A program made the translations under genes and the position numbers. This document shows, piece after piece, positions 3,229-31,069 of a stretch of 32,626 bases of DNA (positions are counted from its first letter, which is position 1; every line of letters begins with the position of its first letter). The notes beneath the pieces are model-generated. The model searched no databases and was not told the origin of the DNA. It saw nothing but the letters and a program-made list of their open reading frames with translations. The stretch comes from a virus (lineage: Duplodnaviria; Heunggongvirae; Uroviricota; Caudoviricetes), in the IMG/VR virus record IMGVR_UViG_2778261384_000002. The stretch is one strand, 5' to 3'.

Positions 3229-4094
3229 AGGCAGCCCTTCAAAAACGACAGATCCGCGCCAGTGAACAGCACGACAGCAGTAAAAATAAAAGAATGGCCG
3301 GGCGGGCTACTGGATTCCAACGCAGACGCCAGTGACGCACCGCCACCGCTTCCCTTCCAGGACCAGACCTGCACGGCGGTTTCGTTCAGCTTGTCAAAGT
3401 CACCAGCCAGATCAGAAACAGCCTTTTCACGCAGCTTTACCAGTTCCGCCAATGTATCGACCGGCGCGCGGGTTTTATATGCGGCCAGCATCGCCATTTC
3501 TGACAACAGCAGGCGGCGCGATTCACGGTGATTTTTTTCGATCAGGTCGCCAGACTCCGGCCACGCCGGATAGGTCAGCGCGCCGGGGCGTTGCATTTTC
3601 TGGGATTCCTTGCCAGCGTGAGCGCGGGCGGTGTTCAGTGCCTGCGTAAATCCGGGGGCGGGCAAGGTGTCACAGACTTTTGTCAGCTTGCTAATGAAGT
3701 CCCCAATCTGACCAGCGCAAACCAGTAAACAAACGGCGTCACCGCCTGCGCCCATTCTCAGATCTGCACCATCGCGCAATTTTTCGGCCAGCCTTTTGAC
3801 GGCGTTCGGCGGGCTAAGATAAGTGCCGCTTTCTTCCTCCTTACCCGCGCCAAACGTCCAGTTATGAACGGCGATTTGCTGCCCGTTCGTTGTCAGTTTA
3901 TCCAGTTCGACGCGCAGATCGGCTACCTGATCCGCCTGCCCCGCCAATTCTGGCTGCGGCCACTGCGCCCGCGATTCCAGCGCGCGCAATGCGTTAATGC
4001 CAGGGGATGACAGCGACGACAACGCACCGTTTAACGTGTCATGCGGCGTTTTCACTTCATCCGGCAGTTTTAACTGTCCATTACTCCACGCCAT
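3225..4094 (-). CDS. Tail-operon hypothetical protein (about 290 aa)
   Basis: Track ORF 3225..4187 begins with TTG; the internal ATG at 4094 has a GGAG Shine-Dalgarno about 13 nt upstream. Hydrophobic C-terminus. No family recognised. Confidence 0.35.
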   Translation of the reverse strand: MAWSNGQLKLPDEVKTPHDTLNGALSSLSSPGINALRALESRAQWPQPELAGQADQVADLRVELDKLTTNGQQIAVHNWTFGAGKEEESGTYLSPPNAVKRLAEKLRDGADLRMGAGGDAVCLLVCAGQIGDFISKLTKVCDTLPAPGFTQALNTARAHAGKESQKMQRPGALTYPAWPESGDLIEKNHRESRRLLLSEMAMLAAYKTRAPVDTLAELVKLREKAVSDLAGDFDKLNETAVQVWSWKGSGGGASLASALESSSPPGHSFIFTAVVLFTGADLSFLKGCL

Positions 4095-4567
4095 GAATAA
4101 CCCCGCTCCCATTCGCTGGAAACCAGCGCGTGTAACTGGCCGGGCGAATAACGCCAGGCATCCCGTAACTGCATAAATTCGGCACAAAACTCGCTACAAA
4201 ACCACTTTTCAGGATTCCCACGGCAAAACAGCAAAAAGCCGATAACCCCGGCGATGTCGTATTTTTTCCCCGCGTACAGGCGGTAAAAACTGGCGATTTC
4301 CTGCGGGCTGGCGCTGATTTCGATCAAGTCCCATTTGTCAGAGGGTAAAGGCATTGTTTTAGCCCTGACCCCGCCATCACGGAACGATGACGAATAGCAG
4401 GTAAAATCCGTGCCGACGTCGTAGCACTGCGGCCCCACGGCGATTTCACAATGTGAATACGGACTGCGGGTAACAAGGCGTGTCACCCAGTCCGCCAGGC
4501 GGGCCAACCCTTTGTGTTCGCTGCGCCCACGATAAAACGCAATAAAAACCGCGTTCATGGTTGCCAC
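4070..4567 (-). CDS. Hypothetical protein with permuted papain-like (peptidase C92 / YiiX-like) motifs
   Basis: 165 aa; His-containing motif SPYSHCEIAV followed later by WFCSEFCAEF resembles the His-then-Cys order of C92/YiiX-type permuted papain-fold proteins; overlaps the tail fibre assembly gene stop by 13 nt. Confidence 0.35.
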   Translation of the reverse strand: MATMNAVFIAFYRGRSEHKGLARLADWVTRLVTRSPYSHCEIAVGPQCYDVGTDFTCYSSSFRDGGVRAKTMPLPSDKWDLIEISASPQEIASFYRLYAGKKYDIAGVIGFLLFCRGNPEKWFCSEFCAEFMQLRDAWRYSPGQLHALVSSEWERGYSWRGVMDS

Positions 4568-5157
4568 CCCTGGGACCAGTCGTAAGCCTCAACGGCGGCA
4601 ATATCGTCCAGGGCATTCACTGCCGCAATATGCGCCTGCGCGACGGCAAATAACCGCATATCATGTTCAATGGTCACAACCTCAAACTGCGCGGCGATCG
4701 CGTTGGTCAGTTCAATCATGCCGTTATTTTTGGTCTGCCACATAAGGCCAGACGGAAGCGCGCCCGCCTGCCCCATTTTTGCCAGCGTCATTTGCTGAAT
4801 GCGGCTGTCTGCGTCGCTGTGAAAATGATGGCCGTTAATTTCAACGTAATCAGCCGTCAACGTGTCGCGGTGTTGTTTGATTGACTGATTAACCGTTATT
4901 TTTGCGTGTTCCAGCGCGGCGCTGAATGCATCGGTGTCGTAAACCCATTTATCACCATTCAGGCGATAAAACTCACCTGGGGGAGGCGTTGTTACCAGTT
5001 TCCCAACGGCTGGATTTACCCAACAATCGCGATCATGGTAGCGCCACTGCGTGTCAGTGACGGGCATAATTGTTTCGGGTAAAACAATATTGAATTGATC
5101 GGTATCCAGCCACTGTAGAACTTTTAAATCAATAGGATTGTAATAAGCGTATTTCAT
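4555..5157 (-). CDS. Tail fibre assembly chaperone
   Basis: Start taken at internal ATG (MKYAYYNPIDLKV...) 4 nt after the tail fibre stop, with GGTGG Shine-Dalgarno; N-terminal motif and position directly downstream of the tail fibre gene are typical of Tfa chaperones. Confidence 0.6.
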   Translation of the reverse strand: MKYAYYNPIDLKVLQWLDTDQFNIVLPETIMPVTDTQWRYHDRDCWVNPAVGKLVTTPPPGEFYRLNGDKWVYDTDAFSAALEHAKITVNQSIKQHRDTLTADYVEINGHHFHSDADSRIQQMTLAKMGQAGALPSGLMWQTKNNGMIELTNAIAAQFEVVTIEHDMRLFAVAQAHIAAVNALDDIAAVEAYDWSQGWQP

Positions 5158-5161
5158 TGAG

Positions 5162-7255
5162 TTACCACCAAATTCTGACAAAACCTGGCGAACCATTGCC
5201 GCCATTACTTTTATTCAGCCCACTACAACTACCGCCAGAACCGCCCGCGCCGTATCCTGTCCCGTTACTACAACCTGATGGAATTCCTTTCCCACCAAGC
5301 CCGAATGGGCTATTTTCGCCGTCGCCAGCGGTCCATATTGTTGATTTAAGGCCATTGAATTCAGCCGGATCCCAAACGCCACTGTTCAGTAATCCACTGC
5401 CGCCCGCGGCTGAAACACCTCCGAAACTAGAAGAACCGCCAGCACCACCAACAATCAGCGCCGTGCCTGATGCAGGGATCGCACCAGCACCGCCAGCACC
5501 TACAGCAACAGAAACAGCCGCCCCCGGCGAAACGGCGACTATTGCAATAGCAATTTGAGCGGCGCGCCCTCCTGGTGCTGGCTTGTAGTAATTGGTGGAC
5601 GATGGGGCCGCGCTGCCGCCAGCACCGCCCCCGATCATTTCCACGAAAACTTTCTTTACCCCGGCAGGGACAGTAAATGTCCCGTTTGCAGTAAACAGGG
5701 CAAAATTACCGAAATAGCGCAAATCGGCGTTTGCCGTCGTGATAAAGTCCGGCGCGCCGGTAATATCGGACCAGGAGTGTTTATGGTTGGCAGCGGCTGC
5801 GCTTACGTCGCTGTACGTCAGCGTAATATCCGCTGACAGTGCCTTATTGTTCACCTTGCGCGTTGTTGGCACGGCGTTTACGTCGCTGTACGTCAGCGCA
5901 ATGTCCGCTGACAGCGCCTTATTGTTCACCTTGCGCGTTGTCGGCACGGCGTTTACGTCGCTGTATGTCAGCGTAATATCCGCTGACAGCGCCTTATTGT
6001 TCACCTTGCGCGTTGTCGGCACAGCGTTTACGTCGCTGTACGTCAGCGTGATGTCCGCTGACAGCGCCTTATCGTTCACCTTGCGCGTTGTTGGCACGGC
6101 ATTTACGTCGCTGTACGTCAGCGCAATGTCCGCTGACAGCGCCTTATTGTTCACCTTGCGCGTTGTCGGCACGGCGTTTACGTCGCTGTATGTCAGCGTA
6201 ATATCCGCTGACAGCGCCTTATTATTCACCTTGCGCGTATCCTGCACCGCGTGAACAATGCGTGGATCATCTGCTGCGGCAACCTGCCCCGCCAATTGCC
6301 CTACGTTGCACACCGCTGCGCCACCCAGCCCCAGATTTACGCGCGACTTGCCTTTATCATCCAAATCAGCCAAGTTTTGCGCCCGGCGCAAGTAGCGCTT
6401 ATCCAGATCGTCACTGTTACGCACTGGACGTAAATCAGTGACTGCCCCATCTGCGGCAATTTCAGCAATTTTAAATACATAGTGGGTTTTCCCCGCAGCA
6501 TCCGAATATTCAGCCAGATCGCCCGACGTAATGACGCAGATATCAGTGACCGGCACGCAGGCAGTCATTACAGACCCCTGCCAGACGGTATCCAGCCAGA
6601 CGGCGGCGGGTTTAGTCCCGACCGCGACATCCTGCGCGGCTTCGTTCGCCAATCGCAAACCGGCCACATAACCCAACCCCGGCAGGCAGCTATATTTCAC
6701 CCCGCTACGTTGAACCAGCCACCCATCATCAAAAAACAGCGCACTGCCGTAATGATCGATATTCAGTAAACGCTGATAATCATCAATACCCGTCAGACGG
6801 GCGGTAAAATCGATCTGCCACGTTTCGGCAGGCGTATTAATCCCTGTCTTTTCTGCAGCACCGTTAAATTCAATCAAAAACGAGCGAGTAAACGCGTTTC
6901 CCTGTTCCGTCGCCGTCGTTTTCACCTTTTCCAGCGCCGGGACCGTTGTCACCATCGCTAAAAGGCCCGTTTTTTTGCAAATCAGGCCGATCCAGTTAAA
7001 CGAAAAATCGCCGACGTTTGTTCCCAGGGTAAACGAGTACGCTACCGTGTTTTTGTTAACCACGCCCGCAGCGTTGACGGGTTCGCGGTAAACAATTTGC
7101 GCAGCATCCGGCAGACCGGCGTCACGGTTTATCACCGCACCCGGATCAAGGCCGGGCACATTAGCCAAAACAAATTCATCCAGCGAAATGTCGCCCGGCG
7201 TCAGCAGATCAGCGGCCTGCCACTGCTCAAATGCCGTCGTGATAATTGTTGCCAT
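5162..7255 (-). CDS. Tail fibre protein with tandem fibre repeats and glycine-rich C-terminal domain
   Basis: 697 aa; six tandem 26-aa repeats (TRKVNNKALSADITLTYSDVNAVPT) typical of phage tail-fibre repeat units; Gly-rich C-terminus; follows the gpI-like gene as in P2 (H after I). Confidence 0.8.
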   Translation of the reverse strand: MATIITTAFEQWQAADLLTPGDISLDEFVLANVPGLDPGAVINRDAGLPDAAQIVYREPVNAAGVVNKNTVAYSFTLGTNVGDFSFNWIGLICKKTGLLAMVTTVPALEKVKTTATEQGNAFTRSFLIEFNGAAEKTGINTPAETWQIDFTARLTGIDDYQRLLNIDHYGSALFFDDGWLVQRSGVKYSCLPGLGYVAGLRLANEAAQDVAVGTKPAAVWLDTVWQGSVMTACVPVTDICVITSGDLAEYSDAAGKTHYVFKIAEIAADGAVTDLRPVRNSDDLDKRYLRRAQNLADLDDKGKSRVNLGLGGAAVCNVGQLAGQVAAADDPRIVHAVQDTRKVNNKALSADITLTYSDVNAVPTTRKVNNKALSADIALTYSDVNAVPTTRKVNDKALSADITLTYSDVNAVPTTRKVNNKALSADITLTYSDVNAVPTTRKVNNKALSADIALTYSDVNAVPTTRKVNNKALSADITLTYSDVSAAAANHKHSWSDITGAPDFITTANADLRYFGNFALFTANGTFTVPAGVKKVFVEMIGGGAGGSAAPSSTNYYKPAPGGRAAQIAIAIVAVSPGAAVSVAVGAGGAGAIPASGTALIVGGAGGSSSFGGVSAAGGSGLLNSGVWDPAEFNGLKSTIWTAGDGENSPFGLGGKGIPSGCSNGTGYGAGGSGGSCSGLNKSNGGNGSPGFVRIWW
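5795..6250. repeat. Tandem direct repeat, about 78 bp x 6, in-frame inside the tail fibre gene
   Basis: Unit cgtcgctgtacgtcagcgtaatatccgctgacag...ttgcgcgttgtcggcacggcgtttacgt recurs with 78-bp period and a few point differences. Coordinates approximate. Confidence 0.8.
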
Positions 7256-22006: not shown

Positions 22007-22786
22007 TTATTCAGTTTCTTGTAAAAGATGCTCTTGTAAATTGCTTTCGGCAGCATCAATCCAAACAGACATACTCTCAACAAAATTAGAAATATCTTCC
22101 AACGCTTTGATTAAAATATCTTTACTGAGCGTGATTTTAGTACCTTCTTTATCAAAACCATTTCTATGTACTATGTCATGTCGTATCTTTGCAATTTTAC
22201 AAACCTCTGGTATTTCTTTCTTAACATTATCTGGAACTTTCTCTCCAAGCACAGCGCCGTAAACTTGGACAGTTTTTTCAATGTTATGGTACAAGTAGTC
22301 AGAAAACTTTCGAATAGCCACGGTTTTAACTATATCTGGATTTAAGTATACGTCTTTTAATGATAATTTTTCTTTTTTTAACTCTTCAACATCATCTATT
22401 GCATTTTCAAAAAAATGATTATTCCTAAGAATTAGACTTTTTATCATGTCACCTAGACATGTTTCCATCAGAGTTATTGAATAAGAGTACATCATTTTCA
22501 ATGCTGACTCGGAAGGCTTGGAAGTAATATCGTCTTTCAATTCTTCCATTTGTTCGCTGAATTGCCTGTACGCATAATTTTCTGACCCAAGCCGGAAAAC
22601 TTCATCCTGTAAAAATTCATCTTCCCAATAATCATCATCTGTAAATTGCCCAGATAGATATTGCGCCTTTAAGTCTTCCCACTCCTCATCACCCGGCTCG
22701 ACCCCCAGATCCGCATGTTCCCTTATCCACTCAATCATAGCTTCTTCAGCTTCACAAGCCTCAATGTATCGTTTTACTGAACCCAT
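22007..22786 (-). CDS. Accessory protein with HEPN-like R-x4-H motif (candidate abortive-infection RNase)
   Basis: 259 aa in a distinctly AT-rich segment; AGGGGA Shine-Dalgarno 6 nt upstream of ATG; acidic N-terminus; C-terminal KIRHDIVHRNG contains an R-x4-H motif of the kind found in HEPN nucleases. Confidence 0.45.
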   Translation of the reverse strand: MGSVKRYIEACEAEEAMIEWIREHADLGVEPGDEEWEDLKAQYLSGQFTDDDYWEDEFLQDEVFRLGSENYAYRQFSEQMEELKDDITSKPSESALKMMYSYSITLMETCLGDMIKSLILRNNHFFENAIDDVEELKKEKLSLKDVYLNPDIVKTVAIRKFSDYLYHNIEKTVQVYGAVLGEKVPDNVKKEIPEVCKIAKIRHDIVHRNGFDKEGTKITLSKDILIKALEDISNFVESMSVWIDAAESNLQEHLLQETE

Positions 22787-23441: not shown

Positions 23442-26006
23442 TCAGTGCGGTACCGCAGCACGCCAGCGCGCCATCAGTTCCGCCGTTTTATTTTTCGCCA
23501 TCGCACGCCGCCAGTGCTGGAAGGTGTCAATCAGCACTAATTCGCCGGTGTTCAGGTTTGCCCGGTAAACGTTATCGATCACCGTCGCCTGCCCGCCCTG
23601 CGCCAGTGCCAGCGATTGCGCGCGCCCCAGCGGTATTTTGCGCAATTTCGCCCACGCCATGATGCGCGCGGCCAGTTCTGCCGCCGCAGCAGTGATCGGT
23701 TTTTCAGTCTCGCGAATGACCGCCGCCGCACGTAAATAATTTTCTGCGCGCAACTGGTCCGCGTCCGAACAGTCAGCCGTCGCTATTTGATACGCCATCG
23801 CCTCGAATTCGTCAGCAGCAGACTGTTTACGCTGTTTTTTGTGCGTCAGGCACTCAGCGCGCAGGCGTTTGCGCTGTTCCCGTGTCAATTTGCCGATCAG
23901 AACCTGTTCGGGATCTCCCGGTGGCGACGAGCCGCTGTTTTTCTCTCCCAAAAAGTCTGTTTTGCTGTTTATATTTTGCTCATCTTTTGCTGTTTTTTCA
24001 GGCTCCGTACAGTTATTGACACGAGTCCTAGCGGGCGCAGACGCGCCCTTAAGGTCAAAAGATGAACAGCCATCACCGGGGCGCTCCGCGCTCTCCGGCG
24101 ATTTTTTAACAATGCGAAAATCCCGCAACCTGGTTATTACCGGCGGGATATTAATCAGCGGCATAAATACACCGCGGATAACCGTCAGATATTCGCCCCA
24201 GCTGTTAGGCTCCGGTTTATCCTGATAAAACGTGCGTAACGGTAAATCCGCGCGTTTTGCCAGCGGTCCGCCCATGAGATTAACAAAACCGCCCCAGTCG
24301 CCCGCATCCGCTGCGGCGTGGATCTCGGCAAACAGCGGATTAACCTGATCAGCGGCCTGTTGATTCCCCAGCCTCCGCAGTTCGCGGTACACCGATACCG
24401 GTACACCGCCCAAAAACTGGAACTGTCTGATCCCCCACGTAGACGCCCACGCAGTGGCGTGATGCGCCGTGTCTTTCAGTGGGCGTCCGCTTTCGTCGTC
24501 GCGCTCATTATCCAGCGCGTAACCGTCGATATTTTTTGAGACGTATTTGACGATATAGCCCGTAGCGGTCCCCCGCTCAGGATCAATCGGTTTGAAATCG
24601 AAACGCGGCTGTATACCGTGTTTCGTCGTTAATTCGTCGGCGTCCTCAGCCGTTGCGTAACGCTGCATGACGTCGCGTAGCGCCTCCTGATGCTCCGGCA
24701 GAGTGAATAACAGGCCGTGCCAGTGCGGCGTCGCGTCGTGATGCGCCTCGGCTACACGTAAGCCAAAAGCGCCGATTTCCTGGCGCGCCAGCTCGGCGCG
24801 GATACGCTGCCAGATAGTATTCAGGTATTTTTGAGACTCACGCGGGCTAACGCCCTGCCATTTGGGATTACGATGACCAAACGCGGTAAACGCGTGATAT
24901 TTTGACGGCGCGGTAATAGTAAAAAAGCTGCCGACAAATCCCTGCTCGTTTGCTACCCGCTCAAAACCGCCAATTCGCGTCATAAGCTCAGTGCGGCGGA
25001 TCGCGGGATTGGACGCGCTTTTTTCTATCTGGTCCAGCAGTGAAAAATGCTCGCCTGTTTCCACGTCTTCTATTTCTAAACGCGCCATAATGTCGCGATT
25101 ACGCTCGCGGCGCTCCCGCCAGGCGCTCACGCGTTCTTTACTACAATAGGTAGATACGCTGCGGCGCACATCGCCCAGGGCGATCCGCAAATGTTCCCGC
25201 CAGCGCACGGCGTAACGCAGTAAATTGCGGTTCCAGTAGCGCGCGTCGATCATTTTGCTGATCGCTGCCGCCAGTTCGTCGGGCAACAGACGCGTTTTGT
25301 TTGCCCCTGTCGCTGTGACGTGAAAAACGTTAGCCAGCGTTTTCAATTCAGCATAAAACCGCCGACCGGTTTCGATTTCGTCCAGGTGTCCACAATCTGC
25401 GGCAATTTCTGCCAGCGTGGCGTTTGCGTAAATTGCGACATCCTGCGCCAGCAATTCAACATCCTCCGGCGAATAATCAGGCAGTGTGTCGAAACGACGG
25501 ATCAGATCGGTGAGTTGTTCAAAATTGTGATAGAGCGGCTCAAGGCCAACAAACGGCGTTTCATAAACCCGCCCAGCATTGCGGGGCGGGTTTATGGAAT
25601 ACCGATTCATAACGGCGGAAATGTGGATTAATTCGCGGCTGGCGATATCTCGCAGCGCCAGCGCCGCGACGTGTCGCCCCTGCTTTTCGTGAGAACGTTC
25701 AACGCGCGCAATCATGCGGCGGCGGACGAATAGCGGGTACGGCTGAAAAGTGGATTTTACACGCTGCCAAAATTCGTATTCGGCGGCGAACTCCTGCGGA
25801 TCGTGTTTCGGAGTCCGATCAACGCTAATTGCTGCGCGCGGGGCGTTCCACGCGTAGGGATACGGTGTATTGTCTGCGCCGCTCCCCAGGAACGGGGGCG
25901 GCGGTGTTGGGGCGTAGCGTCCGCGCGTCAATTGATAGACGCCTTCCACTGCGCAGCTAATGGATCGATTTCGTTGTAATAGGCGGTCATAAATCCGCCT
26001 CTTCAA
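23442..26006 (-). CDS. Replication initiation endonuclease, P2 gpA-like (rolling-circle)
   Basis: 854 aa; motifs YAWNAPR, ITAPSKYH, HHDATPHWHGLLF and YIVKYVSKNIDGYALD match the gpA family; track start is TTG, true start uncertain. Confidence 0.85.
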   Translation of the reverse strand: MKRRIYDRLLQRNRSISCAVEGVYQLTRGRYAPTPPPPFLGSGADNTPYPYAWNAPRAAISVDRTPKHDPQEFAAEYEFWQRVKSTFQPYPLFVRRRMIARVERSHEKQGRHVAALALRDIASRELIHISAVMNRYSINPPRNAGRVYETPFVGLEPLYHNFEQLTDLIRRFDTLPDYSPEDVELLAQDVAIYANATLAEIAADCGHLDEIETGRRFYAELKTLANVFHVTATGANKTRLLPDELAAAISKMIDARYWNRNLLRYAVRWREHLRIALGDVRRSVSTYCSKERVSAWRERRERNRDIMARLEIEDVETGEHFSLLDQIEKSASNPAIRRTELMTRIGGFERVANEQGFVGSFFTITAPSKYHAFTAFGHRNPKWQGVSPRESQKYLNTIWQRIRAELARQEIGAFGLRVAEAHHDATPHWHGLLFTLPEHQEALRDVMQRYATAEDADELTTKHGIQPRFDFKPIDPERGTATGYIVKYVSKNIDGYALDNERDDESGRPLKDTAHHATAWASTWGIRQFQFLGGVPVSVYRELRRLGNQQAADQVNPLFAEIHAAADAGDWGGFVNLMGGPLAKRADLPLRTFYQDKPEPNSWGEYLTVIRGVFMPLINIPPVITRLRDFRIVKKSPESAERPGDGCSSFDLKGASAPARTRVNNCTEPEKTAKDEQNINSKTDFLGEKNSGSSPPGDPEQVLIGKLTREQRKRLRAECLTHKKQRKQSAADEFEAMAYQIATADCSDADQLRAENYLRAAAVIRETEKPITAAAAELAARIMAWAKLRKIPLGRAQSLALAQGGQATVIDNVYRANLNTGELVLIDTFQHWRRAMAKNKTAELMARWRAAVPH

Positions 26007-26391
26007 TCATGCGGTAAGCGATCGCGTAAAATACGGGCGAATGAGGGTGCGCGGTAAAAAGCTCTTCAAGAAAGTCAGGGTAAATACTCAGTTTAAGCAG
26101 ATCACCTCTTGTCAGACCCCAATTAATAAGCACATAGCTATACACAAATAACAGATCAAAACTCAGCAAAACATCGCCAGTCCCCGTCTTATAAACATCA
26201 GTAATCACCCCGGCGACACAAGCCCCTGTCGCCGTTGGCGGATTCTTTCCTGTATCGTCAAAAATAAACTCACGGATAAATAAAAAATCTTCTTTTATAT
26301 AATCCCCCTCATTTAACAGCACCGCGCGTCTTTCGCGTTTTAACACTGGCTGAAAATAATCCGGCTGAATCGCTACTATGTGAATTGTCAT
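25987..26391 (-). CDS. Hypothetical protein with DUF3850/ASCH-like N-terminal motif
   Basis: 134 aa; N-terminus HIVAIQPDYFQPVLKRERRAVLLNEGDYIKEDFLFIREF resembles the DUF3850/ASCH pattern; overlaps flanking genes. Confidence 0.35.
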   Translation of the reverse strand: MTIHIVAIQPDYFQPVLKRERRAVLLNEGDYIKEDFLFIREFIFDDTGKNPPTATGACVAGVITDVYKTGTGDVLLSFDLLFVYSYVLINWGLTRGDLLKLSIYPDFLEELFTAHPHSPVFYAIAYRMIEEADL

Positions 26392-26585
26392 TCCGCGCCC
26401 CTCAAATCAATATTGTCACCGGGTAAAACTCTAATTGCCTGATATCGCGTGGAACGCGTGATCTGTTCATTGCGGTAAAACCCGTCAATAAACACTTCGG
26501 CATCAATTAAATACTGCTCATTCTTTTTTATTTCCCATATGTCAAATACACGGGTAATGACGGCGGGTGCACTAGTCCTCGTCAT
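26388..26585 (-). CDS. Small hypothetical protein (about 65 aa)
   Basis: Internal ATG with GGGGAG Shine-Dalgarno; overlaps the Dam gene stop by 14 nt; no motif recognised. Confidence 0.3.
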   Translation of the reverse strand: MTRTSAPAVITRVFDIWEIKKNEQYLIDAEVFIDGFYRNEQITRSTRYQAIRVLPGDNIDLRGAE

Positions 26586-27588
26586 AGAATTCACTCCCCG
26601 CGCTCGCACAAAAATCGACACTGTCACAAGCTCCACAGCCGCCATCCGGGCAACCCCAAACCGCGCGGCGCTGGGTGTCACAACTACACGGACGGCCCGT
26701 AATCAGGCGACCCCCGCAATATTCACAATGTGGGATATATCCGATCACTTCTTTTGCAGGCTCGCGTTTGCTGGTATTGGCACTGACTGACCGCTGAACA
26801 TTAATTTCCTGAAATGTGAACGGTGCGTAGATTTCTCGCGTGGCGGGCGTGTCGCTGTTGGAAATAACAACCTTTGCAGCACCTCGCGCGCTTATTTCTA
26901 ATAATCTCTGAACTAAGCGGCGGTGGTTGTCCTGGCTGAAGGTCTGCCCATAATATGTGGTAAAGTCTGCTGTTTCGCTGGCGGGTAAATATGGCGGATC
27001 GCAGTAAATAACGAGATTAGGCCCGAAGGGCAGCATTGATAATGTGTCATCAAAATTCATATTGATAAACACCGCATTTGTATCATTCGCCTTTTCTGCA
27101 AACTGCCGGATCTCCTGTTCGGGAAAATACGGCGCTGTCTTATGTCGACCAAACGGAACATTGTATTCCAGTTTATTGTTATAGCGACAAACGCCGTTAT
27201 AACCGTGCCGATTCAAATAGAGAAACCGCGCCGACTGCATTAACGACAATCGCTGCGATGGATATCGGCACCAATCTTTGCGGCAACTTGAATTTAATTC
27301 ATTAAATTCTTTGCGAATCTTTAAATAATATTCTTTTGAATTACCTTCTTTGAATAATTCCCGCGCAACGCAAATAAACAGATTAGTACTATGTTTCACA
27401 TGTTCATACGTGTTTATCAGATCTGAATTAATGTCAGCTAAAACATACTTATCATAACTTGTGTTTAAAAATACCGAACCGCCGCCAACAAACGGTTCCA
27501 TCAGACAATAACCCTTCGGCAAGTGCGGCAGCAGCTCAGGCAAAGCGCGAGTTTTTCCACCTGCCCACTTCAAAAACGGTCTGATCAT
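26572..27588 (-). CDS. Dam-family N6-adenine DNA methyltransferase with Cys-rich C-terminal extension
   Basis: 338 aa; motif I EPFVGGGSVFLN and motif IV DPPY; C-terminal about 60 aa carries 10 cysteines (CEYCGG...PCSCD...GCPDGGCGACDSVDFC). Confidence 0.8.
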   Translation of the reverse strand: MIRPFLKWAGGKTRALPELLPHLPKGYCLMEPFVGGGSVFLNTSYDKYVLADINSDLINTYEHVKHSTNLFICVARELFKEGNSKEYYLKIRKEFNELNSSCRKDWCRYPSQRLSLMQSARFLYLNRHGYNGVCRYNNKLEYNVPFGRHKTAPYFPEQEIRQFAEKANDTNAVFINMNFDDTLSMLPFGPNLVIYCDPPYLPASETADFTTYYGQTFSQDNHRRLVQRLLEISARGAAKVVISNSDTPATREIYAPFTFQEINVQRSVSANTSKREPAKEVIGYIPHCEYCGGRLITGRPCSCDTQRRAVWGCPDGGCGACDSVDFCASAGSEFYDED

Positions 27589-27806
27589 TTTTTATATTCC
27601 TTGTTATATCGTTCGTGAGTTAATAAAGTCCATTGCTGGCCGTCGTTTTTACTCAGTAACCGCCAACATCTGCCGATTGCAATTGACAGATAACCAGTCG
27701 CCAGCCGCCGCACTTTATCGCGGCGACCCTGTCGGAATTCACTAATTAAATTGTGTGCCTGATCAACAACGTAGGCGGGGCAATTATCATTTTTCCGGCG
27801 AATCAT
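27585..27806 (-). CDS. Small hypothetical early protein
   Basis: 73 aa, basic; overlaps both neighbours in the early operon; no motif recognised. Confidence 0.3.
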   Translation of the reverse strand: MIRRKNDNCPAYVVDQAHNLISEFRQGRRDKVRRLATGYLSIAIGRCWRLLSKNDGQQWTLLTHERYNKEYKK

Positions 27807-28374
27807 GATTCACCTTCTCCGCGCGAACGGCAGAAATATTTTTGATATCGTCGCTTAATCTGGCAATCTGGTTAATAACGTCATTCATTGCGTGATGCGG
27901 ATGTTCCAGAACCGCGCGCATTGATGAGTGACCGCATATTGTCAGCGCGATTTCTGCAACCGTTCTAACGTCGCGAGCATTCCAGAAATTCCAGGCCGGA
28001 CGAATCCCTGTCAGGCGCATCGAGTGATAAATAACTGGTAAATCAAAATCAGTGCCGCGCGCCCATATTTTTAAATCTTCTGAATCATCACAAAAACAAC
28101 AAAAATCGTTCAACTTATAGAGCGACTCTGATAAAGGCAAACCAGCATCGGATACAAGCTCATCTCTTGCGCATAAATTTTGCTTCATCCACCATTTAAC
28201 AGTATCCGCACCAATTGTCGCCCCTTTGTATTGAGCATCAGCAACATTAACGGGAATATAAATAGACATTCCAATCTCGCCAGTTCGGGGATCGAAAAAT
28301 GCGGCAGCAATAGAAACAATTGAGGCAGTTGGTTTATTATCCAATGTTTCAATGTCAATCATTATATTATTCAT
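27787..28374 (-). CDS. 3'-5' exonuclease, DEDD (DnaQ-like) superfamily
   Basis: 195 aa; N-terminal IDIETLD (Exo I D-x-E) with later FDLPVIYH and HHAMNDV motifs consistent with DEDDh exonucleases. Confidence 0.6.
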   Translation of the reverse strand: MNNIMIDIETLDNKPTASIVSIAAAFFDPRTGEIGMSIYIPVNVADAQYKGATIGADTVKWWMKQNLCARDELVSDAGLPLSESLYKLNDFCCFCDDSEDLKIWARGTDFDLPVIYHSMRLTGIRPAWNFWNARDVRTVAEIALTICGHSSMRAVLEHPHHAMNDVINQIARLSDDIKNISAVRAEKVNHDSPEK

Positions 28375-28376
28375 GA

Positions 28377-28592
28377 TTAGATTCCGTATGGTGAAGGGGG
28401 AAGAGATGGGCGGCTCAGCGCATTAGTAAGACGACGGCGCATGGATTGTATAAATGCAACAACATCAGGATCTGTTGATGCCAGTGTTAATTCGCCTGCG
28501 TTACGCGTTTTTATAGTCATTCCGCGCTCTTCAAGCTCCGGTAAAAATGAATGCAATACAAAACTGTATTCATCCCGTTTAGTCATAGACAT
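28377..28592 (-). CDS. Small hypothetical early protein
   Basis: 71-aa ORF in the early operon, 3 nt upstream of the exonuclease gene; no motif recognised. Confidence 0.3.
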   Translation of the reverse strand: MSMTKRDEYSFVLHSFLPELEERGMTIKTRNAGELTLASTDPDVVAFIQSMRRRLTNALSRPSLPPSPYGI

Positions 28593-28669
28593 ATAATTAC
28601 CCGTTTTTAGGTTGTAAGAATCCGCACCACTTTTTAAAGTGGTGTGCGATATTTAATAAATTCAGTTAA

Positions 28670-28903
28670 TTAAAAATAGCGTTTAATTAATTTAATCAGT
28701 GCGGCTATTACGCCCCTGTTTATTTTTTGCGTGTACACAAAAGGCTTGTTTCTGCCCTTAATAAACTGAACTCTTGACGGCTCCGGCTTAAAATAACGCC
28801 CGTCCGGTGTTTCAATCCAGCCGCGCGTCGATTTACAATGCGTGACCTGGCAACCGTTGCGTAATAGACTGGCGAATGAAGGAAATTGTTGTTCACTCAT
28901 AAC
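28670..28903 (-). CDS. Small hypothetical early protein
   Basis: Internal start MSEQQF... about 77 aa, overlapping the upstream small membrane ORF by 7 nt; basic C-terminus. Confidence 0.3.
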   Translation of the reverse strand, partial: VMSEQQFPSFASLLRNGCQVTHCKSTRGWIETPDGRYFKPEPSRVQFIKGRNKPFVYTQKINRGVIAALIKLIKRYF

Positions 28904-29118
28904 AGACACTCTAAAAGGGAGGCGACGCCAAATATTAGCAGCCAGCCACAAAATACATCTAAAAATAATGGTGCCGCCGCTTCAATATCCCTGTGTAATG
29001 CGTCAATAAAACGGATTCTGTTGCTACTGTTTTTTAATCTTCCGTAGGACCAAACAACAACGGCCCCCAAAATAAAAACCGCAACATTAAATATCCCCGA
29101 AAAAAAATATTGGCTCAT
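28897..29118 (-). CDS. Small membrane protein (two predicted TM helices)
   Basis: 73 aa with two hydrophobic segments (NVAVFILGAVVVW and FCGWLLIFGVASLL). Confidence 0.35.
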   Translation of the reverse strand: MSQYFFSGIFNVAVFILGAVVVWSYGRLKNSSNRIRFIDALHRDIEAAAPLFLDVFCGWLLIFGVASLLECLL

Positions 29119-29129
29119 TGCGCACCCGT

Positions 29130-29378
29130 TTATCTGCCAGTAATGGCAAGCTTTAGATCAGCGATCAGGCGGTCCAGTTGGTGGCGTCCGTCATCGTTCA
29201 GTGCGTCAATGCCGTAATCAAACGCAGCCAGAATTGCCATTTCCATTTCGCGGGATTCGATCGCGATGGGCAGTCGCTTACCCGGTTGCACATATACCGG
29301 CACGTCGTACCCTTCATAAAACGGATCGACTTCCCGCGCCTTTTCTGTGTTAAGTGGATTAAACATTTTTCCTCTCAA
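29130..29378 (-). CDS. Small hypothetical early protein
   Basis: 82-aa ORF; stop and start overlap the Cox-like gene (coupling); no motif recognised. Confidence 0.3.
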   Translation of the reverse strand: MRGKMFNPLNTEKAREVDPFYEGYDVPVYVQPGKRLPIAIESREMEMAILAAFDYGIDALNDDGRHQLDRLIADLKLAITGR

Positions 29379-29794
29379 TTAAACGCTGTCGTTTTTGTCA
29401 GGCTGGCTTCGGCGGTCATAAAAGCTCTGGCATACCATGCAACCATATTGATTTGTCTTAGTTCTCGACGATTCGGATCGACACGCGGAACTAATGGCAG
29501 ATAGCCGCGCTCCGCATCGCTTTGAACCTTACGCAAAGACTGTCCGAAGAATTCGGAAAATTCCTGCACTGTTAAAACCGGTTTAATGCCACTACTAAGG
29601 ATATGTTTCAGTGCGCGGTCAATTGCCATTAGTTCACGTTCAGAACGACTATCAGGGGCTCGCCAAGCGCGGCGCTGATGATTGCTTTGAGTCTGTTCGG
29701 GTAAAAACGCGCCTTGTGCCAGTTCAACAACCGGGTAGTAACCAGGATCAGTCTCCTGATGTGCGGGTAAAGCTCTGTTTTGCTCTGGTGTCAT
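29375..29794 (-). CDS. Cox/Apl-like HTH excisionase-regulator, first gene of early operon
   Basis: 139 aa; AGGA Shine-Dalgarno before ATG; segment LTVQEFSEFFGQSLRKVQSDAERGYLPLV parallels the P2 Cox HTH as recalled; divergent from the C repressor gene. Confidence 0.45.
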   Translation of the reverse strand: MTPEQNRALPAHQETDPGYYPVVELAQGAFLPEQTQSNHQRRAWRAPDSRSERELMAIDRALKHILSSGIKPVLTVQEFSEFFGQSLRKVQSDAERGYLPLVPRVDPNRRELRQINMVAWYARAFMTAEASLTKTTAFN

Positions 29795-29886
29795 TTGATA
29801 TCCTGTCGGTTTAGATTGGTTTCGTTTGTGCTCAACGGGGTACGTATTTGTACCCTTGGCGTAATATTAAGGGGCAAATTTGTACC
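29795..29886. promoter_or_regulatory. C/cox-type switch region with candidate operator repeats
   Basis: 92-bp gap between divergent Cox-like and C genes; direct repeat ATTTGTACC x2 about 32 bp apart, the second abutting the C start codon; overlapping GGGTAC/GTACCC inverted repeat. Confidence 0.45.
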
Positions 29887-30156
29887 ATGTCAACATTACT
29901 GGGCGAAAAAATTCGACTTATACGGGAAGCGGAAGGCCTCACCCGAGAGGATTTCGAAGCAATGACCGGCATACCTGCCGGAAATACAAAACGTTATGAA
30001 ACTGGTAGAACAAAAAGTATCGGTAGTGACTTTTTAACCAAAATTACTAATCACCCCAGATTCCAGCGGTATACGCTATGGCTGATGTCTGACATCACCG
30101 CACCAGAAGCAGGTCAGATAGCACCAGTTACCAAAGAAGAGAAAAAGACCGGTTAA
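29887..30156 (+). CDS. Immunity repressor, P2 C-type
   Basis: Track ORF begins with TTG at 29848; ATG at 29887 (AAGGGG Shine-Dalgarno) gives 89 aa; motif RFQRYTLWLMSDITAPEAGQIAP matches P2 C as recalled. Confidence 0.7.
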   Translation: MSTLLGEKIRLIREAEGLTREDFEAMTGIPAGNTKRYETGRTKSIGSDFLTKITNHPRFQRYTLWLMSDITAPEAGQIAPVTKEEKKTG

Positions 30157-30198: not shown

Positions 30199-30648
30199 AT
30201 GTCAAAAGATAATGATACATTTATACCCCCAATACGCCCACCTCGTAATTCCCGCTATGGAGAACCATCACCAGAACTTATGAAAAGGCTACAACAAGTT
30301 ACCCCTGAATTATTCGCTGAATTTTTGATGTCAAAAAACGCCGCTCAGTTCTGCATATCATGTGGATTCACTAAATTAACAATGTCCGAAAATGGAGTTT
30401 ATAGTGGCGCGAAGATTCCCGAGAACTATGATTCTTTATCGCAAATCGATCAGGAAAAATTCGTAGGTGATAATACTCTCTGGTATGTAACGCCCGTGTT
30501 TGTGAATACTCATACAAAAATAAGATTAGCCGATGTCGAATATAAAATTAATTGCCCAAACTGCGGGCATATCAGCATTTATCGCGCCCGCCCGGTCGTC
30601 GCATGGATAGAAGAGAATCGCAAGGAATGCAAAAATGAGTCAGACTAA
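30199..30648 (+). CDS. Hypothetical zinc-ribbon protein (accessory cassette gene 1)
   Basis: 149 aa; AGGA Shine-Dalgarno; two CxxC pairs (CISCG and CPNCG) about 68 residues apart; AT-rich codon usage unlike the phage core. Confidence 0.5.
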   Translation: MSKDNDTFIPPIRPPRNSRYGEPSPELMKRLQQVTPELFAEFLMSKNAAQFCISCGFTKLTMSENGVYSGAKIPENYDSLSQIDQEKFVGDNTLWYVTPVFVNTHTKIRLADVEYKINCPNCGHISIYRARPVVAWIEENRKECKNESD

Positions 30649-31069
30649 GGATAATGTTCATCATATAAGAGAACGTCAGGTACCCATAAATAATGAGTCC
30701 ACAAACAGTAGTGACGACGGAGGCAACGGCATGAACAGCCTAATAAAACGCGTTGAAAAACTTGAAGACAATACCGGTGTAATTGTTAAAGAACTTACCC
30801 ATCTCAATGCGCGCGCTGATGACTTCGCCTCAAAGGGAGATCTGCGTGAACTCAAGGCGCAGATAACTGGGGATATGAAAGAACTCCGTGCGCAGATGAC
30901 CGGAGATATGCGCGAGCTTAAGGCACAGATTAGCGGCGAACTCAAAGAGTCCAGGTCAGCAGCCAGGGAAGATCTTGCAAAGGGATTACATAAGCAAATG
31001 ATATGGCTATGCTCTGCCCTTTTCGCTACAGCAGGAGTCATAATCGCTTTGGCAAAAGGTCTGCTCTAA
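30635..31069 (+). CDS. Coiled-coil protein with C-terminal transmembrane anchor (accessory cassette gene 2)
   Basis: 144 aa; start overlaps gene 1 by 14 nt with AAGGAA Shine-Dalgarno; three and a half 11-residue repeats (GDLRELKAQIT / GDMKELRAQMT / GDMRELKAQIS); hydrophobic C-terminus MIWLCSALFATAGVIIALA. Confidence 0.5.
   Translation: MSQTKDNVHHIRERQVPINNESTNSSDDGGNGMNSLIKRVEKLEDNTGVIVKELTHLNARADDFASKGDLRELKAQITGDMKELRAQMTGDMRELKAQISGELKESRSAAREDLAKGLHKQMIWLCSALFATAGVIIALAKGLL

Follow-up and report, generated by a model that had tools for sequence, protein, structure and literature searches.

The closest described relative of the gene considered here is DexA of phages T4 and T2 (PDB IDs: 8KEL and 8KEN), a DNA exonuclease whose catalytic set has been equated with D12, E14, D103, H162, and D167 of the polymerase III epsilon subunit (PMC12153337); a figure legend in that paper prints E12, whereas the Exo I glutamate in the DexA sequence is E9. 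Also described are Rv2179c from Mycobacterium tuberculosis, which founded Pfam family PF16473 and is given as a 3' exoribonuclease in the passage of PMC8628891 that cites Abendroth et al. (2014), and EcD, a DexA homologue from Escherichia coli that is reported to digest T4 DNA containing 5-hydroxymethylcytosine (5hmC), spare unmodified DNA, and protect cells (PMC12153337). Here, we examined a member of the same family in a 32,626-nucleotide stretch of viral DNA (IMG/VR record IMGVR_UViG_2778261384_000002; Caudoviricetes), which at its full length is called the window below. We confirmed that the gene at 27787..28374 on the minus strand is intact and encodes a DEDDh 3'-5' exonuclease of the DexA/Rv2179c-like family, and its surrounding architecture supports a place in the early operon of a P2/186-like prophage. 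Its identity as a 3'-5' exonuclease is already known, as RefSeq (PGAP) uses the name "3'-5' exonuclease" (WP_157904513.1) for the identical protein in identical E. coli prophages, and the family is both described and large, with 9,875 clusters at 50% identity matching at E ≤ 1e-3 and 4,046 at E ≤ 1e-10. The gene and its catalytic motifs are positioned as follows.

27787..28374, minus strand: coding sequence of the DEDDh 3'-5' exonuclease (DexA/Rv2179c-like, PF16473), 195 amino acids; alternative PGAP start at 28362
28339..28362, minus strand: Exo I motif MIDIETLD, residues 5-12, with D7 at 28354-28356 and E9 at 28348-28350
28042..28044, minus strand: Exo II catalytic aspartate D111 (in GTDFDLPVI), aligning with DexA D119
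27880..27897, minus strand: Exo III motif H160-x4-D165 (HHAMND), which defines the DEDDh subtype, aligning with DexA H186/D191

An earlier note, made from the letters of the DNA alone, had placed a phage-encoded DEDD 3'-5' exonuclease with an IDIETLD-type motif at this locus. The open reading frame (ORF) that it delimited is there with exact coordinates and strand, running for 195 amino acids from an ATG and opening with MNNIMIDIETLD, and the motif corresponds to MIDIETLD. Our Pfam search matched the protein nearly at full length to the Rv2179c model PF16473 ("3'-5' exoribonuclease Rv2179c-like domain"; E = 4e-45, 154.1 bits with a gathering cut-off of 27 bits, model positions 1-171 of 177), and PHROG 255 'exonuclease' was matched at E = 1e-46. 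In alignments of 14 and 29 sequences (the window protein with 13 or 28 homologues), D7, E9, D111, H160, and D165 are invariant, and they align with D7, E9, D119, H186, and D191 of T2/T4 DexA. The absence of the catalytic acidic residues on alignment with DnaQ-family members, which the earlier note had named as what would speak against its call, is not what we found: D7, E9, D111, and D165 are all present and unvarying, and the call of a DEDD 3'-5' exonuclease holds. Moreover, because H160 is also present, the enzyme is of the DEDDh subtype. A DnaQ proofreading subunit or orthologue was considered and rejected, given that the exonuclease has no PF00929 match at E ≤ 0.01 and no match in NCBIfam, and that the window holds no polymerase. 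Judged by sequence, then, the exonuclease is a member of the DexA/Rv2179c-like family PF16473 and not an orthologue of DnaQ.

DexA proved the nearest known structure in every search made against the PDB. It was the sole match (8kel/8ken, E = 1e-8) in a single-sequence phmmer search and led a profile search built on 29 homologues (E = 8e-22), ahead of the DnaQ domain, oligoribonucleases (Orn), Cas2-DEDDh, the PolC exonuclease, and RNase T, while hhalign paired the window exonuclease with T2 DexA at 99.2% probability. The AlphaFold2 model, for which the 29-sequence alignment was used without the T2 DexA row, has a mean predicted local distance difference test score (pLDDT) of 93.2 and a predicted template modelling score (pTM) of 0.88, with an RNase H-like α/β fold predicted for the enzyme. 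When this model was compared with the PDB by Foldseek, DexA (8kel/8ken) was again the best match (E = 5e-13, template modelling score of 0.79), followed by RNase T, the Streptococcus thermophilus DnaQ domain, Orn, and REXO2; there were 138 matches at E ≤ 1e-3, and the top 50 of these 138 are all DEDDh enzymes. DnaQ (the polymerase III epsilon subunit), RNase T, and oligoribonuclease share the superfamily fold and the same five catalytic residues with the window protein, but at just 12-20% identity.

Although DexA and the window protein belong to one Pfam family and have identical DEDDh catalytic residues, and DexA is the best PDB match of the window protein by sequence and fold, their identity is only about 24%, and the 227 residues of DexA compare with 195 in the window protein, from which two extra loop/helix insertions of DexA are missing. 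W152, a tryptophan that DexA contributes from the partner subunit, is kept as W131 (in FWN). In contrast, DexA D169 aligns with G148 or with an insertion, in the MAFFT and hhalign alignments alike, this being a loop region where the alignment is less certain, and the DexA tetramer contacts S87/D90 align with P80/E83 in a poorly conserved segment. The genomic settings differ as well, with DexA encoded by a virulent 5hmC phage and the window gene by a temperate P2-like prophage with unmodified DNA. A homodimeric state, with active sites completed across the interface, is shared by DexA, RNase T, Orn, and REXO2, and the analogy with the first three of these makes it probable that the window exonuclease is a homodimer too; since the partner-subunit tryptophan is retained as W131, a dimer fits, though this is not proof of one.

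Relatives that stand beside recombination genes give a second view of the family. Exonucleases with 35-38% identity are early-operon genes of temperate enterobacterial phages, and among these the homologue in lambdoid mEp235 (XSB40935.1) lies in an Erf-SSB-exonuclease-anti-RecBCD module (SSB, single-stranded DNA-binding protein), while gp060 of the Lederbergvirus phiKp_30 comes directly after the SSB gene, with neighbouring genes that are unannotated. The third such setting is a fusion, in which the Rv2179c-like DEDDh domain is C-terminal to the RecE N-terminal region (Exonuc_VIII, PF06630) in prophage proteins of 640-900 amino acids (P0081, P0057, P0098, P0125, P0129, and P0141; loci L026 at 3847-6219 and L027 at 4001-6373). 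In Rac-like prophages they stand at the recE position, no RecT gene adjoins them, and they look like a nuclease-domain swap in RecE-like proteins. Unlike the homologues in mEp235 and phiKp_30 and those at the recE position, the window gene belongs to a P2-type operon, where it lies between Fil and Dam and is accompanied by neither a single-strand annealing protein (SSAP) nor an SSB.

Because of this family context (Erf-SSB modules and RecE fusions), and because DexA is itself a DNA exonuclease, we infer DNA rather than RNA as the substrate and favour a role in processing DNA ends. The earlier note had suggested replication or recombination, or else the breakdown of host or competitor nucleic acids, and either option may still apply. 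DEDDh chemistry is a two-metal-ion hydrolysis of the 3'-terminal phosphodiester, with a histidine as general base, and in the window protein His160 would take that part, as judged from the family. With good confidence, we regard the product as a competent two-metal-ion DEDDh exonuclease of the early lytic operon that likely trims free 3' ends of single-stranded DNA or oligonucleotides. By analogy with P2 and 186, its gene would be co-transcribed in a repressor-controlled early (lytic) operon with those for Fil, a ParE-like protein, Dam, and the rolling-circle initiator gpA, and its translation is probably coupled to a 71-amino-acid ORF just upstream. In lytic DNA metabolism, the enzyme would then shorten single-stranded DNA or oligonucleotides from their free 3' ends. 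It could in this way trim or clear away 3' tails and fragments in connection with replication and recombination, as DexA does in T4, rather than proofread within a polymerase.

Several observations weigh against this proposal. Neither an SSAP nor any other recombination partner is encoded in the window, and we know of no phage exonuclease requirement for P2-type rolling-circle replication. In 50,697 phage records, the top protein match reaches just 38% identity, from which it follows that classical P2, 186, PSP3, and Fels-2 do without the exonuclease gene and that it is accessory. Promoter and terminator scans of the region gave counts not above shuffled expectation, and the single-operon reading therefore rests on gene packing and P2/186 analogy. 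Substrate and role of the P2-like homologues likewise rest on analogy. Lastly, the family namesake Rv2179c is an exoribonuclease in the account given by PMC8628891, which makes an RNA or nano-oligonucleotide substrate a live alternative. The enzyme might in that case act like Rv2179c, RNase T, or Orn/REXO2 as an exoribonuclease or oligonucleotidase, trimming RNA 3' ends or degrading nano-RNA, nano-DNA, or dinucleotides, with nucleotide recycling or altered host RNA during lytic growth as the outcome. We consider this unlikely, albeit the most serious of the other explanations. The Pfam family carries the name of exoribonuclease Rv2179c (again as presented in the cited portion of PMC8628891), RNase T, oligoribonuclease, and REXO2 are the closest structures after DexA, and close homologues are called '3'-5' exoribonuclease' in several database sources. 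Such names, however, are transferred labels and not tests, DexA, which among characterised proteins comes nearest in sequence as well as in fold, is a DNA exonuclease, and the family is found in DNA-recombination modules and RecE fusions. Rv2179c itself appears more distant than DexA, because no PDB chain of that name is among the profile-search matches at E ≤ 0.01 or the Foldseek top 50; it is, moreover, a cellular RNA-processing enzyme as PMC8628891 refers to it, whereas the window gene is a phage early gene. DEDDh enzymes are often active on both sugars.

A comparison with EcD bears on a different alternative. EcD, or 'HREX' (HAK9828821.1; PMC12153337), is an E. coli DEDDh exonuclease similar to DexA but short, without the extra loops of the latter and with the catalytic residues and the tryptophan conserved, and Escherichia is the commonest genus with DexA homologues of this kind (PMC12153337). 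Were the window protein a competition or defence nuclease of the same type, it would digest the 5hmC-containing or otherwise modified DNA of superinfecting T-even phages and spare unmodified DNA. Along with the antiphage report and the genus distribution, what suits such a function is the retained W131 and the accessory, patchy occurrence of the gene, the 1.3 kb that contain it (window 27400-28700) being found in 8 of 5,426 complete E. coli genomes, of which six are identical and two have a variant of about 91.5% identity. Yet D169 is essential for 5hmC recognition by DexA (PMC12153337), and EcD, compared here by the paper's description and cloning primers only, begins MIDTET and keeps the equivalent aspartate, while the window protein and its close clade have G148 or an insertion in its place. 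Further, the gene is embedded in an early lytic operon under repressor control, has no separate promoter, and, by analogy, is expected to be silent in a lysogen, and the exonuclease has no PADLOC match. On balance, an EcD-like role seems improbable to us. In a search for the EcD gene, a composite BLAST of E. coli genomes gave no match, and 20-mer scans of viral, genome, and metagenome contigs returned chance matches and no exonuclease ORF; none of the retrieved exonuclease homologues begins MIDTET.

As for the integrity of the gene, we set it against a variant from a different E. coli prophage, in which the 1.3 kb around the gene have 91.7% identity to the window. Third codon positions account for 46 of the 83 differences, and the codon changes comprise 40 synonymous and 29 non-synonymous ones, a pattern which, as read from the two sequences, is that of a translated gene. 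Opposite the exonuclease gene, the plus strand has ORFs of 30-47 amino acids only, and scans of the locus found no Rfam match, no tRNA, and no meaningful repeats. That the ORF is a degenerate, inactive, or unexpressed remnant devoid of function is hardly credible, for although the P2 family at large can do without the gene, its intact frame, invariant catalytic residues, third-position bias, synteny down to 44% identity, and high-confidence fold prediction all speak otherwise. The start codon allows two choices, as PGAP begins the protein at M5 (window 28362), 12 nucleotides later than the first ATG, which the earlier note had used. An MNNIM or MNxxM N-terminus is retained in homologues as distant as 32-36% identity, codon 3 has a synonymous change (AAT>AAC) in two relatives, and a Shine-Dalgarno (SD)-like GGA, GGGG, or GGGAG is present 10-14 nucleotides 5' of the first ATG in three lineages. 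For these reasons the longer form starting at 28374 appears at least as good as that of PGAP.

The window is a P2-family prophage, with a P2-type major capsid protein, GPO scaffold, gpP-like terminase, portal, Ogr/Delta, GPA replication endonuclease, 186-type Fil, and integrase, and in E. coli chromosomes it adjoins mipA/yeaG. The claim in the earlier note that the exonuclease is phage-encoded is borne out by the capsid, scaffold, terminase, GPA, Fil, and integrase genes, and its placement of the gene in an early operon agrees with the same-strand array found between the repressor/Cox region and replication gene A, as judged by architecture and analogy. Its description of the neighbours as small genes of unknown function was right for some, such as the 71-amino-acid ORF, but not for Fil, the ParE-like ORF, and Dam, which are recognisable. 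Adjacent genes of this array have overlaps or gaps of -20 to +180 nucleotides. In order of the early array, the features are these.

29887..30156, plus strand: helix-turn-helix repressor (C/CI-like), divergent from the early array
29864..29893, minus strand: candidate sigma-70-like promoter TTGACA-18-TAATAT (10/12), 70 nucleotides upstream of the Cox-like gene and overlapping the divergent repressor start
29375..29794, minus strand: Cox/Apl-like protein, 139 amino acids, first gene of the array (phrog_575, E = 7.5e-9)
29130-29378, minus strand: ORF of 82 amino acids (78 from the PGAP start at 29366)
28897-29118, minus strand: ORF of 73 amino acids
28670..28900, minus strand: Fil, phage 186 filamentation protein family, upstream of the exonuclease
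28377..28592, minus strand: ORF of 71 amino acids (phrog_21140), its stop 2 nucleotides before the exonuclease ATG and the SD-like GGA/GGGG/GGGAG within its last codons
27585..27806, minus strand: ParE-like ORF, 73 amino acids (PF24732, E = 3e-17), overlapping the exonuclease 3' end by 20 nucleotides
26572..27588, minus strand: Dam-family N6-adenine DNA methyltransferase, 338 amino acids, overlapping the ParE-like stop by 4 nucleotides
25987-26391, minus strand: ORF of 134 amino acids
23442..26006, minus strand: replication endonuclease gpA (PF05840; PGAP start 25931), last gene of the early array

Relatives have PF10743 (Phage_Cox) at the position of the Cox-like gene. The TTGACA-18-TAATAT site was the best promoter-like match in the 8.5 kb scanned, as a consensus match only, and is a candidate early promoter (Pe/pR equivalent) with the geometry expected of a P2/186 early promoter. 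Taken together, the architecture and the P2/186 analogy support the assignment of the exonuclease to an early operon.

This early position, beside the host-interference genes Fil and Dam, also raises the notion of an anti-defence nuclease. Perhaps in concert with Dam, it would destroy, at an early stage of the lytic cycle, a nucleic acid of host immunity that exposes a 3' terminus, for example retron multicopy single-stranded DNA (msDNA) or a linear oligonucleotide serving as signal or primer. Retron toxin-antitoxin systems are acted on both by methylation through Dam and by the breakdown of msDNA through exonucleases (bioRxiv 10.1101/2020.06.22.160242), and the family member in mEp235 adjoins anti-RecBCD genes. 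However, in that work the retron system is set off, not blocked, by the nucleases and methylases (bioRxiv 10.1101/2020.06.22.160242), the case is circumstantial throughout, and no family member is known to act in this way; we hold it to be very improbable.

Of the two small ORFs that flank the exonuclease, the upstream one of 71 amino acids has no Pfam match. It adjoins the exonuclease in E. coli, Salmonella, and Klebsiella relatives at 45-57% identity, and a DUF5347 ORF takes its place in relatives with 44-45% exonuclease identity. It is probably coupled translationally to the exonuclease, and may be its partner or regulator. The ParE-like ORF is directly downstream of the exonuclease in four of the six lineages examined and is hypothetical or uncalled in some PGAP runs. 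A strict toxin-antitoxin pairing of this ORF with the exonuclease was considered and rejected, as in Klebsiella relatives Dam and another ORF separate the two genes, and in one locus the ParE-like gene is missing. No obvious antitoxin gene accompanies it. One may picture the 71-amino-acid ORF, the exonuclease, and the ParE-like ORF as a small module that, instead of a housekeeping task in DNA metabolism, would serve the induced phage as a weapon against competing nucleic acids. Its target would be either modified superinfecting-phage DNA (as for an HREX variant whose specificity for modifications has shifted) or a nucleic acid of host immunity, and the small proteins would be specificity or regulatory subunits, but we give this picture little credence.

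Within the ParE-like ORF, window positions 27635-27667 are 100% identical to a 33-nucleotide CRISPR spacer in 21 complete E. coli genomes. On the minus strand AT precedes the protospacer, whose first base is G, giving an ATG protospacer adjacent motif of type I-E. Strain H15 has this spacer in a type I-E array, in the last position at the leader end, which is the one proximal to cas2e. With identical spacers in E. coli, CRISPR in this species has evidently recorded this prophage lineage. Further along the array, the C-terminal ~50 amino acids of Dam (window 26572-26730, minus strand) form a cysteine-rich tail, CEYCGG...CSC...CPDGGCGACDSVDFC, after a D12 methyltransferase domain that ends near residue 285; the tail looks like a zinc-binding extension, and an unannotated ORF of 97 amino acids (26388-26681) overlaps it in another frame.

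Two other loci of the prophage lie outside the early array. At 22007-22786 (minus strand), between ogr/delta and the sfsB-like and gpA genes, there is a low-GC island (35.5%, with flanks of about 53%) that encodes a HEPN protein of 259 amino acids (RiboL-PSP-HEPN, E = 1e-6) with no PADLOC match, and this gene is a candidate for lysogen-expressed defence cargo at a P2-type hotspot. Positions 30199-31069 (plus strand), flanked by the repressor and integrase genes, hold two ORFs of 149 (with Zn-ribbon-like CxxC pairs) and 144 amino acids, for which the sole match is a weak one to PbeC (E = 9e-4). In relatives, the same slot contains a membrane protein and a WYL-domain protein (L011) or other small ORFs (L022), and it is a variable, probably lysogen-expressed moron locus.

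Turning to the distribution of the exonuclease itself, homologues at 67% (Salmonella), 52% (Klebsiella), 45%, and 44% identity all lie between cox and gene A of P2-like prophages, usually with Dam and the ParE-like ORF nearby. Megablast searches with the exonuclease locus and with the first 25 kb of the window found no match among the 50,697 phage records, which places the prophage in a lineage without a close sequenced phage isolate. The exonuclease recurs as an accessory gene in one branch of P2/186-like prophages, where its place is always between the Cox/Fil region and gpA, and no P2-like member of the family has been characterised so far. As a recognisable member of a very large and already annotated family, it is of modest importance in itself. 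Nonetheless, an antiphage activity has recently been claimed for a bacterial homologue, and DexA homologues of temperate phages such as this one may serve either DNA metabolism or conflict between phages.

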